Shown here: one piece after another, positions 4,381 to 10,043 of the stretch
How positions within the stretch are numbered: position 1 is the first letter of the stretch
How the letters are laid out: every line of letters begins with the position of its first letter
Assembly: GCA_046563655.1 (NCBI GenBank)
Contig: CM102286.1
Span: forward strand, 13,578,001 to 13,642,000
DNA from: Yuukianura sp. NJ FZ-2021
Taxonomy: Eukaryota
Direction: 5' to 3'
Length of the DNA stretch: 64,000 nt
Made by a program: the position numbers and the translations under genes
The notes under the pieces: model-generated
The model's input: the letters and a program-made list of their open reading frames with translations, nothing else
What the model was told of the DNA's origin: nothing
Databases searched by the model: none

Positions 4381-6813
4381 ATGTCACTGAAAAACTCTAC
4401 ACTTTTAACACGTCCAAGTTCTTGGAGAAGACGAAATCAATTGACTCCGGTCACTATAATCTTCTACTTGGTTCTGACGTTTTCCCCAGACAACGGTTGC
4501 AAAAGTCTTCACATCCAAGGAAATTTTCACACCAATGACTTCTTTCTCTTCCTGTCAAAATTCGGCTTCCAGCAAACCGAGTTCATCAAAGACAACCGCG
4601 TCCAGAGTCAGGGCTACATTTATGGAAACATCACAAACGTCCTGGACGATGGCAAGCATCCATTCCTTCCCACTACTTCAACCACCACTGTAAAACCTTC
4701 AACATCCACCACTACAACTACTACTCCTGCAGTACCCGCTTCATCTTCAATTCCAGCATCCACAAATGCCACCAGTAGCAGTACTTCCAAAACTAACGAA
4801 ATTGACAGTACTTCTAAAACGAATGAAACCAGCAGTAGCATAGCAGTACCGTCATCTACCGAGGCGACGATGCCAACCATTCGTCCAGAGCCGTTGCCCA
4901 CACCTCAGTCCAGTAGACTACCAAGAAGTATTCCACCTAACGCTGCATATCCAGCAACTTTAGTTGCAGTACATCGTAGTTACTTCCTGGACTTCTACCG
5001 ACTGCGGGACTCCAGAGAAGATCCAAACACCATTTGCCAATTGATGTTCCAGGGAATATCTAGTGGAAATGGGTGCAGTGCAGAAGCCAAAGAAAACTTT
5101 CACAAATACCTCCGTCATGTTCCGTGCTCAAAAAATGGAGTGTGTCCAGATGAAACTGACCTCAACACGCTCGTTGAAGGAAGTCAGTTTACTTTTCCCA
5201 TTATGAATAAGAACGAAGCCAAGTAAGTTTGGAGTCTACCAGTATGCCCAGTATGATACTGCCAAAAGTTACTGGATACTGGCAGTATCCAGTGTCTTTT
5301 GGCAGTATTTTTTGGAATGCGACTAATTGTGTGATTTGTGTTACAGATTTTGGTACTTGACTCTAGTCTCTTGCTACTTTGATGAGAGTAAGTGCAAGTG
5401 GCAACACAGTGCAGAAGACACGACAGTCCACTACGACATTTGGCTAGTCAATGGAAACCCGTATAAAAAGAGCGAGAATCCATTGGAAAACCAGTTTTCG
5501 TTTGACCGTCAAGTAAGTTGGGATTTAACATAATTAAATCATACAAATAGAATGAATAAGTTTTAATATAACTATGTTTTTGCTTTCCGCAGGACACTGT
5601 GGAGATCTATCTCGTTTTCTTCGTGGGCTACCTAATTCTGTTTCCGATTCAAATTCACGCGGTTCTGCGGCAGCGTCATATTGTGCCAAAACTTTTCACG
5701 TCTTCAGTAACGCTGGAGCTTGGTGCTGTGATGGCAAATGTCGTTGATGTTTTGAAGTATGCTGTGGATGGCCAAGGATATCCCAAACTTGCAGTATTTG
5801 GAGACATACTGGATATACTGGCCAGGGTTAGCTAGTAACAGTTGTTGCAAAATTTTGAAAAAATGAATTGGAGTTTTTGAAAATTTTGAGTCGCAGTTTT
5901 TTAAATTGGTTTTAGGCAATTTTTATGTTGATACTGCTGGTGCTAGCCAAGGGTTGGGCAGTTACGCGGACAGAACTTACTGGCAAACCGTTTATATTTA
6001 CGATATGGACGATGTACAGCGTTGTTCACATTCTGCTCTACATTTGGAATCAGGTAATTAGATGCTACATTGATAGATACTTTTTGCAACATTTGCTTTT
6101 TTGTGTGATGAATTCCAAAATGTGCTGACTTTGAATTGTTTTACAGACAGAAGTGGATGTGATTGAGGACATCGACGAGTATCAGACTTGGCCAGGATGG
6201 CTAATTCTTATCCTGAGGACGATCATCATGATGTGGTTTGTGTACGAGCTCAAAGACACAATGGATCATGAGCACCAACCTCACAAATTGAACTTCTTTC
6301 TTCACTTTGGAGCTCAAGCGCTCGTCTGGTTCATCTATTTGCCAATTGTCGCACTAATTGCACTCCAAGTATCTCCATTGTGGAGGTCAAAGTTACTTTT
6401 AGGTGAGAGAGACATGATTTACCGTTAATTAAGTTATGGTATGATTAATTGGTTGATTTGGAATGATTTTCTTAGGGATAACATACTCAGCTGACTTTTT
6501 CGCATTTGCTGTCATGACACATTTGCTGTTTCCAACACGCAGTCAGCAATACCTCCTTCTTACGGCCAACAAAATCGACTCGTCAGTCAACGATGAACTG
6601 GAAGAATTCAACGAAGCTCCACATGTAGTCAATCCATATGCGTCGCGCAGAACAAACAACCGTGTCCCTATCAACTACGCCATCAATGGAGCTTCTACTT
6701 TTGACTCCAATTCACTTCTCAGCTTCAACAACAATACCACTTCCAACTCAAATGGAATCCACAACAATTCGTTCTTTGACAACAAAGACAATGTGCCGCT
6801 CATCAGGACATAA
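4381..6813 (+). CDS. GPR180: GPR180/TMEM145-family integral membrane (7TM) protein, ~657 aa
   Basis: Exons 4381-5222, 5347-5512, 5593-5826, 5916-6053, 6147-6402 and 6476-6813 join in frame. There is a signal-like hydrophobic stretch, a luminal domain (FLSKFGFQ, FWYLTLVSC, YDIWLVNGNP, NQFSFD) and multiple TM helices (LLVLAKGWAVTR, EYQTWPG, WFIYLP). GPR180 versus TMEM145 orthology was not tested. Confidence 0.85.
5256..5308. repeat. 53-nt near-perfect palindrome in the first coding-region intron of the GPR180-like gene
   Basis: ATACTGCCAAAAG-TT-ACTGGATACTG-G-CAGTATCCAGT-GT-CTTTTGGCAGTAT: 13-bp and 11-bp perfect arms. Confidence 0.9.
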
Positions 6814-7159
6814 GCAAGCCAAAGCATCTACCTTTCAACGAGTCAAGTTGAATGTACTTTACAATTGCTCAGCTCACCCACTTCAAATCGCTTAAGCGAC
6901 CGGGGGTTAACGGAAAACGCCTAATTCCATATCATAGTAGAATAGAACTTTTAGCATGTTAGAGCAAATCGCATTTTAAGATGTACTCACTCACTCTTGT
7001 GGCGTTTCTAATGGTTGTTCTTTTTTAATCTGGCTCAATAACATGGATTTGGACATGGACATGACATAAGGTTTACCTGGAGGTTGGTGGCCAGTATTAA
7101 AATGCAAAAACTTGCAAATCTTCTTGGAAGTTTGTGTTGTTGACGATGGTTAATTTTTG

Positions 7160-7752
7160 CTAAAGCAGCTTGAGGTGGCCCGTAATTTCATCAATTGTAG
7201 ATACTGGAGCTGGTCCTAAGCCGAGAACAGTAACTGTGCCAGCTTCAATCTGCCAATGAACAAAATGTTCAATTGAGTAATTAGTAATTTGCTATTAATT
7301 AATCGACATTTAAGTAGTTAGTTGAGTGGACTTACTTGGGTATGACCTGCGTCTCTGACAAGGGCATTGACAACACCGATTGCTTTTGCTTTCTTCTGAA
7401 GGCTCTTCAATTCTGCCTCTCCTCCATCACATTTGATACAAATTTTAGTTTGACCCGTAGCTTCCCAAATGTCCAAATTGACTGGATCAGATACTTGAGC
7501 ACTTTGGTAACACATTACTGCTGCGTGACAACACTGAGCAGCGATTTTTCCTTTACCCATTCCAAGATCATTCCGTACAACGAACACCATTTTATGATTT
7601 CTTCCTAAATTTTTGGCACGAATGGCTGCTAATCGGGCTGTCCGTGACAGAGACTGCGGATTACTAGGTGATGCGAAAACGTATTTCTTCAGGATCACTC
7701 CGGTAAGTATTCCTACTCCATAGATGATTGCTGACCCAACGTAGTAGTCCAT
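7160..7752 (-). CDS. PTRH2: Peptidyl-tRNA hydrolase 2, mitochondrial, 168 aa
   Basis: Exons 7752-7336 and 7249-7160. N-terminal TM anchor, then KMVFVVRNDLGMGKGKIAAQCCHAA, GQTKI, VRDAGHTQ|IEAGTVTVLGLGP..IDEITGHLKLL-stop, which are PTH2 family motifs. Confidence 0.96.
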
Positions 7753-7787
7753 GATGAATTGATGAAGACAATGGTGGAGGGATTCGA

Positions 7788-8098
7788 TTATTGTTCCGGT
7801 CTCGGATTCTTCTTCTTATACTCTTCAATACAGACACGGAAGTCCTCCACTTGTTGCTGACACTTCCTCCAGTCGGCGTAGTCAGCGATACAGGTCTAAA
7901 GCATAATTAAGTAATTAATCGTCAGTTCTCGGGAAATTGTATCTTTAATTTAACGTTTCTCACCTGAACGTCGTAGTGCTTTTGTAAACAACCGGTTTTG
8001 GCTAGAAGACGTTCTACTGGATCTTCTGGCTCTTCAGAACCGCTGGCTTGTGTTGGACGTGATCTTTGATGTCCTTCGAACTGGGCCTTTTTCTCCAT
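7788..8098 (-). CDS. COA4: Cytochrome c oxidase assembly factor 4 (twin CX9C protein), 80 aa
   Basis: Exons 8098-7964 and 7895-7788 give MEKKAQFEGHQRSRPTQASGSEEPEDPVERLLAKTGCLQKHYDVQ|TCIADYADWRKCQQQVEDFRVCIEEYKKKNPRPEQ. It has two CX9C motifs plus the EDPVE..L.KTGC and DWR.CQ..V..FR.C signatures. Confidence 0.92.
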
Positions 8099-8718
8099 AC
8101 AGCAGTTGACCTTTGACCTGAAAGCTGAAAAGCAATTGCCAACAATAAACAAATTCGATTGGAAGACAACGAATGTCACAGCAAAATTTCAGATGAAGTT
8201 CGCAGGGAAATTGCAGCACCGAAGACCGGATTTTTTTCTCAATTGGTTCCCGCTGCCACACTTCTCAGGGTGGTGGTGGGAATCGTACTGGGAGCATCTT
8301 TGAAACAATACCATAGGAACTTTCAAAGGTGGTTGATTTAATTAGTTAATTAGCTAATTACTTGATTAATTAGTTAGTTAGAAATAAAATTCATCATGAG
8401 TGAGTTCGATTGATAGAGGACAGTTTACTGGTAATTTGAATGTGAATTTAACACTTGCAACGCCCAAATTTTATCCTGCAAAACTTAGAGAATCCTGATT
8501 GCCACATTTGCGAGTTTAGCCAAAAAAAGATGTCGACAAAGATAAACTATAAGATTTACCAATACATTTGAAGCATTAACTGTTGTTTAACTTACTAATA
8601 AGACGCATCGATGTTACTCTAACAAAGTTATTTTTACAAAACAAGACATTTTCGAGAAAGGAAAATGCTGTTGCTTAGGGTTGGGATGAAGAATGCAATC
8701 GTTTCACTTCTATTAGAC

Positions 8719-10043
8719 TTAACAACATCCGGATTGCTTAGGTTCCAGAGTTCGTCCTGAATCAATTTTGACTCCGGTGCTTGCAGAATCTTGTGAATAT
8801 TGTGGACCAACACGATGCTTGATCTAAACAGACAGAAAGGAAAGGTTAGATCCAATTACTAACTAATTACTAATCGATTGTTCGTTCCATAGGGAAATCA
8901 AAAACTTACTTCTGAAGCCATCGTCATAAACGCTTGCTCCACGTTTGTGGAGTTCTTTGCCGACGTCTCCAAAAACGGAATTCCCAGGCTATCAGCAAAC
9001 TCCTACACAAAGAAAAACGAGAATTTAGCTTCATACAAGACGGCATACACCGATACGTTGTAATTACAAAATAGTTTATGTTTCCACTTCTAACCTTTGC
9101 ATTTTGATAGTTGACAACTTTCTTTGATGTTAAGTCACATTTGTTTCCGACGAGCAGCTTATTCACATTTTCACAGGCATAGCGATCAATTTCTTCCAAC
9201 CATTGCTTCACATTGTTGAATGACTCGAGATCAGTGCAGTCGTAGACAACAATGATCCCATGGGCACCTCTGTAGTAGCTGGAAGTAATTGTTCGGAAAC
9301 GCTCTTGTCCAGCAGTATCCCACTGAAGTCAAATGTCAATTAAAACCGTAAACAAGTGTTGTAAACTATCTTTAACTTACGATTTGAAGCTTGACGGTCT
9401 TTCCGTCTAGGTCAATTGTTCTAATTTTCTGCAACACAAAGGAAATAACCGTTAATCATCATCTATCAAGATCGACATGCAGTAGCAGTACTAAACTTGT
9501 AAAATGTTAAGTCACATCCAAGCATTCAACTTACGAAATCCACTCCTATAGTGCTGATATAGCTATCTGTGTACGTATCGTCCTGTAGTAATCAAACAAT
9601 AATAAGTTAGTGAAAAATAGTAAGGTTAAAATGAGAAGTAACATAGTATGATTCCTCTGTAGTATTTCCACATCATGAATCTCAGTAAAGGTCAATGTCC
9701 CTGAGATTAGTAGCTAACTGTTGACCAACACTTGTCAGCCCCATTTTAATCTTTCCTTTGTTTCTATCTCAGGAATCAACATCTTTTTAGTTACACAACT
9801 CGATAACATAGAACTCACTGAAAATCTTAGAAGTAGGCATGACTTTCCGACTCCAGAATCCCCGATGAGAAGGAGCTTGAAGAGGTAATCACTGAAATAT
9901 CAACAAAACATGCAATCAATCATCACTGAACAACTAACTAACATCGTATTTCATTCATGTATGAATCATGAATCTCAATTTTATATACATAAACACAATA
10001 ATATCAAATCCAAGACTTACTAATCAGCGTTCATTGTTGCCAT
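8719..10043 (-). CDS. Rab1: Rab1 small GTPase, 205 aa
   Basis: Exons 10043-10021, 9891-9819, 9582-9535, 9428-9381, 9322-9095, 9002-8910 and 8823-8719. They read [88 protein letters not shown] and end in a GCC prenylation motif. Confidence 0.97.

Follow-up and report, generated by a model that had tools for sequence, protein, structure and literature searches.

Organization of the COA4-PTRH2 Locus

The window analysed here is a stretch of 64,000 nucleotides from Yuukianura sp. NJ FZ-2021 (GenBank assembly GCA_046563655.1, contig CM102286.1, positions 13,578,001 to 13,642,000 of the forward strand). Between positions 8098 and 7160 of its minus strand it contains two complete open reading frames (ORFs) of two exons each, the first for a COA4-like protein and the second for PTRH2. 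This feature is real and, as shown by comparison with related loci, conserved, and the two genes very probably form a dicistronic unit, in which both ORFs would be carried by the same messenger RNA (mRNA).

The gene models are reported in Table 1. The coordinates, the 35-nt gap between the two ORFs, the spacer devoid of signals and the T versus A at position -3 of the two start codons, all proposed in an initial annotation of the sequence, were reproduced. Indeed, scanning of the whole 35 nt of the spacer (7787-7753) found neither an ATG nor an AG, and AATAAA and ATTAAA are likewise absent; in addition, no canonical poly(A) signal was found on the spliced minus strand from the COA4 stop to position 7029, and the ATTAAA located there is the putative poly(A) signal of the unit. 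The context of the COA4 start is tgctgtATGg, with T at -3, and that of the PTRH2 start is ttcatcATGg, with A at -3 and G at +4. A polypyrimidine-CAG sequence in the leader might, speculatively, be a splice acceptor of the 5′-untranslated region (UTR).

Table 1. Features of the COA4-PTRH2 locus (window positions)
Feature	Position	Strand	Description
Leader 5′ of the COA4 ATG	8099..8125	-	conserved weak context CTGnATGG
COA4-like exon 1	7964..8098	-	ATG at 8098; 45 codons; ends with ...HYDVQ, followed by a GT donor
COA4 intron	7896..7963	-	68 nt, GT..AG; ATTAAA at 7949
COA4-like exon 2	7788..7895	-	35 codons and TAA stop (7790-7788); second half of the twin Cx9C
Intercistronic spacer	7753..7787	-	35 nt
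PTRH2 exon 1	7336..7752	-	ATG at 7752; 139 codons; hydrophobic segment at the N-terminus, followed by the PTH2 domain
PTRH2 intron	7250..7335	-	86 nt, GT..AG; conserved position, after HTQ|
PTRH2 exon 2	7160..7249	-	29 codons and TAG stop (7162-7160)
ATTAAA, putative poly(A) signal	7024..7029	-	131 nt beyond the PTRH2 stop; first canonical one after the COA4 stop in the spliced transcript

Identity of the Encoded Proteins

The first ORF was accepted as COA4 on the basis of its cysteine motif and of its named relatives. The spliced translation is 80 residues long and contains C37-x9-C47 and C57-x9-C67, a twin Cx9C motif that is kept in all the aligned relatives. The Pfam CHCH profile (PF06747) scored 19.6 bits on exon 2 alone, compared to a gathering cutoff of 27.2; four of the five full-length relatives reached 22.1-25.1 bits, all under the same cutoff, and one related locus (L072) gave no CHCH match. 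The window protein shares 57.7% identity over 78 amino acids (tblastn) with an uninterrupted ORF of a related metagenome locus, L002, whose product matches “Cytochrome oxidase assembly factor 4 [Halocaridina rubra]” with 61% identity (E 1.3e-19). In the Atlas, a cluster bearing the name “Cytochrome c oxidase assembly factor 4 homolog” scored 0.92, a value to be taken as a lead only. As a member of this family, the window protein is presumably located in the intermembrane space and involved in complex IV assembly.

PTRH2 is 168 amino acids long, and its exon 1 alone matches the PTH2 profile (PF01981) with 106.2 bits (cutoff 23, E 1.5e-30); the L002 orthologue scores 146.4 bits and spans the entire 115-position profile. 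A hydrophobic stretch at about residues 5-22 is seen in the N-terminal part of the translation and is conserved in the alignment. The closest named proteins are from springtails, namely Orchesella cincta and O. dallaii (62-63% identity) and Allacma fusca (52%), while unnamed metagenome proteins reach 81-86% identity; based on these matches, a springtail is the most likely source of the window. The identification of the two genes as COA4 and PTRH2, put forward in the initial annotation, is thus upheld by the Cx9C motif, the named COA4 relatives and the PF01981 match. Protein searches by length covered the ranges 76-244 and 299-2000 amino acids, and a COA4+PTRH2 fusion, of about 250 residues, would fall between them; the 12 matches found in the 299-2000 range are fungal or other multi-domain proteins and are uninformative on such fusions.

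Conservation of the Gene Pair

A metagenome scan with the PTRH2 alignment yielded 80 loci that were kept for analysis. A COA4 ORF is present in 11 of them (L001-L009, L014 and L072), always directly 5′ of PTRH2 and on the same strand, and tblastn and profile hidden Markov model (HMM) searches agree on the identical 11 loci; the conserved adjacency that the initial annotation had suggested to look for by tBLASTn is therefore present in the relatives. Neither type of search found a COA4 ORF in the remaining 69 loci, which are mostly weak PTRH2 matches confined to the C-terminus. PTRH2 identity is 98.9% between L004 and Orchesella dallaii, and 73% between L008 and Allacma fusca; these matches indicate that at least two more springtail lineages have the COA4-PTRH2 arrangement. 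L014 and L072 belong to more distant animals.

Intron positions are also shared. The COA4 intron, located after HYxVQ, is common to the window, L001, L005, L007 and L009, and the PTRH2 intron, after HTQ, is found in the same loci and also in L003, where COA4 is truncated at its 5′-end. In L001, a perfect tandem duplication of 72 nt (L001:264-409; 2.0 copies, 100% match) includes the 3′-end of COA4 exon 1 and the 5′ splice site, resulting in two identical donor sites in succession. A different layout from that of the springtails was observed in L014, where the ATG of PTRH2 is found 8 nt within the COA4 ORF (L014:481-488) and the COA4 leader contains five upstream ATGs.

Evidence for a Common Transcript

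Both the COA4 and the PTRH2 introns are missing in six of the 11 loci (L002, L004, L006, L008, L014 and L072), in which the ORFs are uninterrupted, indicating that these contigs were assembled from spliced RNA spanning both ORFs. L002 is also devoid of an intron of the convergent downstream gene, which is kept in the window and in L001, and in L002, L004 and L008 no ATG precedes that of COA4 on the contig. The spanning contigs provide strong evidence of continuous RNA coverage and, together with the other comparative data, make it highly likely that COA4 and PTRH2 are co-transcribed in the window as well; by extension from the relatives, a single mRNA would be shared by the two genes also in this organism. 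A spliced leader (SL) trans-splicing operon was ruled out, given the absence of AG in the spacer and the spacer of merely 3 nt in L002.

Two observations weigh against this conclusion. The contigs of L002, L004 and L008 also hold the antisense 3′-end of the convergent gene, indicating that the assembler merged overlapping transcripts, and hence a spanning contig is no proof of a single molecule; moreover, the ATTAAA at 7949, inside the COA4 intron, could terminate a short unspliced isoform. PTRH2 might be produced from a separate mRNA, transcribed from a start site of its own within COA4 exon 2 or immediately 5′ of it, or from an isoform lacking COA4 exon 1, and the spanning contigs would represent merges, as the same contigs demonstrably do for convergent transcripts, or minor read-through. 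The spacers of 76-224 nt of the distant relatives could house a promoter, but those of L002 and of the window, of 3 and 35 nt, argue against this explanation, as does the fact that, on the spliced strand, the first canonical poly(A) signal available to a COA4-only mRNA is the one at 7029. As regards Drosophila, Crosby et al. report alternative monocistronic transcripts at many dicistronic loci of FlyBase, whereas the pair that appears to correspond to COA4-PTRH2 is listed there without monocistronic alternatives (PMC4528330). Two separate mRNAs are thus considered improbable, also in view of the distribution of ATGs described below.

ATG Depletion between the Two Start Codons

In the window, no ATG is found in the 275 spliced nucleotides between the COA4 and PTRH2 starts, while the unspliced sequence contains one, within the COA4 intron. 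The number expected from base composition is 4.07, confirming the estimate of about four given in the initial annotation; mononucleotide shuffles gave 4.10 (P(0) = 0.012) and dinucleotide shuffles of the interval 2.78 (P(0) = 0.021), while resampling of synonymous codons with the protein kept fixed gave P(0) = 0.017 or 0.038 in two runs. Out-of-frame ATGs would be possible at eight COA4 codon junctions and are realised at none.

The same analysis was extended to a set of ten loci, comprising the window and the nine loci with the COA4 start on the contig (Table 2); L003 and L006 were excluded because the start lies off the contig. As a comparison, PTRH2 exon 1 contains 8-15 ATGs per 357-486 nt across loci, with eight internal ATGs in 414 nt in the window.

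Table 2. ATGs between the COA4 and PTRH2 starts in the ten loci of the signature set
Locus	Intervening ATGs	Interval (nt)	Spacer (nt)
Window	0	275	35
L001	0	242	17
L002	1 (in frame)	240	3
L008	2 (both in frame)	203	14
L014	1	199	-8 (overlap)
L004	4	367	76
L005	4	382	172
L009	5	320	80
L007	7 (model uncertain)	418	136
L072	7	461	224

Depletion of AUGs in relatives, which had been indicated as a test in the initial annotation, was evident when out-of-frame ATGs were counted in the COA4 coding sequence of the ten loci: 10 were observed compared to 31.9 expected from a codon-resampling null, although the codon table behind this null was drawn from only ~220-460 codons per locus. The PTRH2 control with the same null gave 64 observed and 56.0 expected. 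Depletion concerns both parts of COA4, with 6 out-of-frame ATGs versus 14.7 expected in the exon-1 part (Poisson P 0.009) and 3 versus 17.2 in the exon-2 part (Poisson P 3e-5), counts that omit the PTRH2 start lying inside the L014 COA4 ORF. The greater depletion in the exon-2 part would fit with a PTRH2 transcript starting close to this exon, but the depletion in exon 1 and the conserved weak context of the COA4 start would be unexpected if PTRH2 had its own mRNA. As for in-frame AUGs, most relatives have one, due to the conserved Met of an ...ERML... motif, which is replaced by Leu in the window and in L001.

Between loci, identity at the third codon positions of conserved residues is only 21-59% (L009 is absent from this comparison, since the anchor motif is missing); synonymous sites are thus nearly randomised and the loci can be regarded as nearly independent observations. 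This bears on the possibility that adjacency and the ATG-free stretch arose by chance in a compact genome and have no function. Considering the window alone, ~2% of the ATG-to-ATG gaps are as long (at least 278 nt) and the P values of ~0.01-0.04 are modest, so that the depletion is suggestive and becomes convincing only together with the relatives. However, adjacency, order and strand are kept in 11 of 11 COA4-bearing loci and the depletion recurs in loci with essentially randomised synonymous sites; a chance origin is already disfavoured by these data and appears hardly credible.

Start Codon Contexts

The start codon contexts display a corresponding asymmetry. The nucleotide at -3 of COA4 is a pyrimidine in eight of the ten loci, and that of PTRH2 is a purine in nine of the ten; moreover, CTGnATGG is found at the COA4 start in four of the five aligned springtail-like loci. 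The leaky-scanning signature noticed in the initial annotation, i.e., a weak first and a strong second start together with ATG depletion, is thus confirmed in the window and is also conserved in relatives. A weak first AUG, a strong second AUG and avoidance of AUGs in the first cistron represent the signature of the leaky-scanning cases that have experimental support.

Proposed Mechanism of PTRH2 Translation

According to the proposed model, the primary transcript would start upstream of position 8098, both introns would be removed and polyadenylation would follow the ATTAAA at 7029, giving a mature mRNA in which COA4 is the 5′ cistron and PTRH2 the 3′ one. Part of the scanning 40S subunits would initiate at the COA4 AUG, which is in weak context with a pyrimidine at -3; the remaining ones would pass the AUG-free COA4 coding region and the 35-nt spacer, and initiate at the PTRH2 AUG, in strong context. 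The ratio between the two proteins would thereby be set at translation. The model as a whole, comprising one transcription unit, a dicistronic mRNA and leaky scanning, is considered rather probable; as to the step of translation, leaky scanning is probably the main route to PTRH2 in the window.

The main alternative for a dicistronic mRNA is termination-reinitiation, in which the 40S subunit, after translation of COA4, would resume scanning or slide back to the PTRH2 start. Stop and start are indeed close or overlapping in several cases (3, 14 and 17 nt apart in L002, L008 and L001, respectively, and overlapping by 8 nt in L014 and by 16 nt in Drosophila), and the relatives tolerate in-frame internal AUGs. 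However, reinitiation would not be expected to impose any constraint on out-of-frame AUGs of the first ORF, which are instead about 3-fold depleted, nor does it account for the conserved weak context of the COA4 AUG or for spacers that reach 224 nt; furthermore, COA4 has a length of 63-97 codons across loci, which is long for efficient reinitiation. This route is therefore considered unlikely as the main source of PTRH2 in the window. Even less likely is a site of internal ribosome entry (IRES) before PTRH2, a mechanism that Crosby et al. 2015 (PMC4528330) suggest as possibly frequent in dicistronic pairs of Drosophila: the spacer is of 35 nt in the window, of 3 nt in L002 and negative in L014, with neither its length nor its sequence being conserved, and an IRES driving PTRH2 translation seems very improbable.

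Some data weigh against leaky scanning as a general explanation. The last five loci of Table 2 contain 4-7 intervening ATGs and, considering all relatives, the spacer length is not conserved, ranging from -8 to 224 nt; pure leaky scanning is thus not universal and, in the distant lineages, is unlikely to suffice; part of PTRH2 may come there from reinitiation that follows short out-of-frame ORFs, or from an additional transcript of the gene. Start contexts have exceptions too, since a purine is found at -3 of COA4 in L014 (A) and L072 (G), and a C at -3 of PTRH2 in L001. Finally, Crosby et al. 2015 (PMC4528330) report that a scanning mechanism has requirements which most Drosophila dicistronic pairs fail to satisfy. 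The initial proposal of one transcript producing both proteins, in a ratio set by the first AUG, can thus be retained in part: co-transcription is likely, based on the spliced-RNA contigs of relatives, the adjacency in 11 of 80 loci, the ATG avoidance and the asymmetry of the Kozak contexts, while a ratio dictated by the first AUG is a prediction for the window, and the 4-7 ATGs of the distant relatives speak against pure leaky scanning as a universal route.

Comparison with Known Dicistronic Loci

In Drosophila melanogaster, the genes CG44194, presumably the COA4 orthologue, and CG17327 appear to be the same gene pair as in the window, as matched by text and by a supplementary table. File S1 of Crosby et al. 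2015 (PMC4528330) lists CG44194/CG17327 as “all di/polycistronic”, “unrelated” and with “OVERLAP 16 nt”, and a second supplementary table of the same study describes a “dicistronic locus” with a shared multiphase exon. In addition, a micropublication reports that CG44194 is nested within CG17327 in D. melanogaster (PMC13624857); CG17327 is described as an aminoacyl-tRNA hydrolase (PMC3411240), and CG44194 is included among cytochrome c oxidase assembly genes (PMC13712805). Literature searches by gene name found no paper describing a COA4-PTRH2 pair, and the fly annotation surfaced solely through the CG numbers. The pairing of COA4 and PTRH2 is thus not new, given the fly listing of what appears to be the same pair, and the belief expressed in the initial annotation that it was undescribed does not hold, since CG44194/CG17327 is listed as exclusively dicistronic (PMC4528330). 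The two arrangements differ in that the ORFs overlap by 16 nt in the fly and are 35 nt apart in the window; moreover, no mechanism is given in the fly listings, while the signature found in the window favours leaky scanning.

Among the characterized cases, sloth1/sloth2 of Drosophila has a similar layout: the reporters described by Bosch et al. 2022 (PMC9681215) show that translation of the first ORF limits that of the second one, as expected for leaky scanning. Similarly to COA4-PTRH2, a small mitochondrial protein is encoded first, the spacer is tiny (5 nt in sloth) and a non-optimal Kozak context is followed by an optimal one. On the other hand, the sloth1 and sloth2 peptides are paralogues and participate in one complex (complex III), whereas COA4 and PTRH2 show no sequence relationship and are not known to belong to a common complex.

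A further Drosophila pair is formed by Ccdc56 (COA3), presumably the upstream cistron, and mtTFB1. This pair is listed as exclusively dicistronic, with a spacer of 88 nt (File S1, PMC4528330), and Ccdc56/Coa3 is reported as a cytochrome c oxidase (COX) assembly factor (PMC9953451); although the genes are different, it resembles COA4-PTRH2 in that a complex IV assembly factor of small size is paired with a mitochondrial enzyme unrelated to it. Outside animals, the bicistronic loci of green algae, for which leaky scanning is reported to be experimentally supported, have a weak Kozak-like context at ORF 1, and start codons are under-represented ahead of ORF 2 (Duenas et al. 2024, PMC11291117). 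In one alga, five of 22 mitochondrion-associated bicistronic loci are reported to encode cytochrome c oxidase assembly functions (PMC11291117). The two-part signature is the same as in COA4-PTRH2, but it occurs in another kingdom and in other gene pairs.

Significance of the Gene Pair

Dicistronic mRNAs are a recognised, though minor, component of arthropod genomes; in D. melanogaster, 159 pairs have been annotated (PMC4528330). What is added here is modest and concerns the extension of the COA4-PTRH2 linkage to springtails and the depth of its conservation, together with a quantitative signature of selection, consisting of AUG avoidance at synonymous sites, a weak first start and a strong second start; this signature points to leaky scanning for a pair without an assigned mechanism. 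It is conceivable, although doubtful, that COA4-PTRH2 represents an ancient and obligately dicistronic unit, which predates the split between springtails and flies and was kept because the cell requires a fixed translational ratio, or strict co-expression, of a complex IV assembly factor and of the peptidyl-tRNA hydrolase anchored to the mitochondrion. If this were true, respiratory-chain biogenesis would be functionally linked to the rescue, at the mitochondrial surface, of stalled translation products. As regards annotation, gene finders that assume one ORF per mRNA will tend to lose the 80-codon COA4 or to misplace the UTRs at this locus.

Neighbouring Genes and Other Features

A gene for a Ras-family, Rab-like GTPase (PF00071, 101.9 bits), whose product ends with ...SGCC, is located upstream of COA4, on the minus strand at 8719-9328; its position leaves at most ~620 nt for its own 3′-end and for the COA4 promoter and leader. 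Downstream of PTRH2, a convergent GPR180/TMEM145-like gene lies on the plus strand (6135-6813; PF10192 transmembrane domain, 93.6 bits), and the protein encoded by its segment 6192-6404 is 100% identical to that of L002 over 71 residues, far above the values of COA4 and PTRH2. Opposing ATTAAA sequences (minus strand 7029 and plus strand 7096; region 7024-7101) predict an overlap between the 3′-ends of PTRH2 and of the GPR180/TMEM145-like gene, which agrees with the merged convergent contigs of L002, L004 and L008.

Dense runs of TAATTA-like motifs (e.g., ctaactaactaattaatcaagtaattagctaattaactaattaaat) were observed on the minus strand, in the intergenic stretch upstream of COA4 (8330-8395) and in both introns (7896-7963 and 7250-7335); these runs may be mere AT-rich filler.

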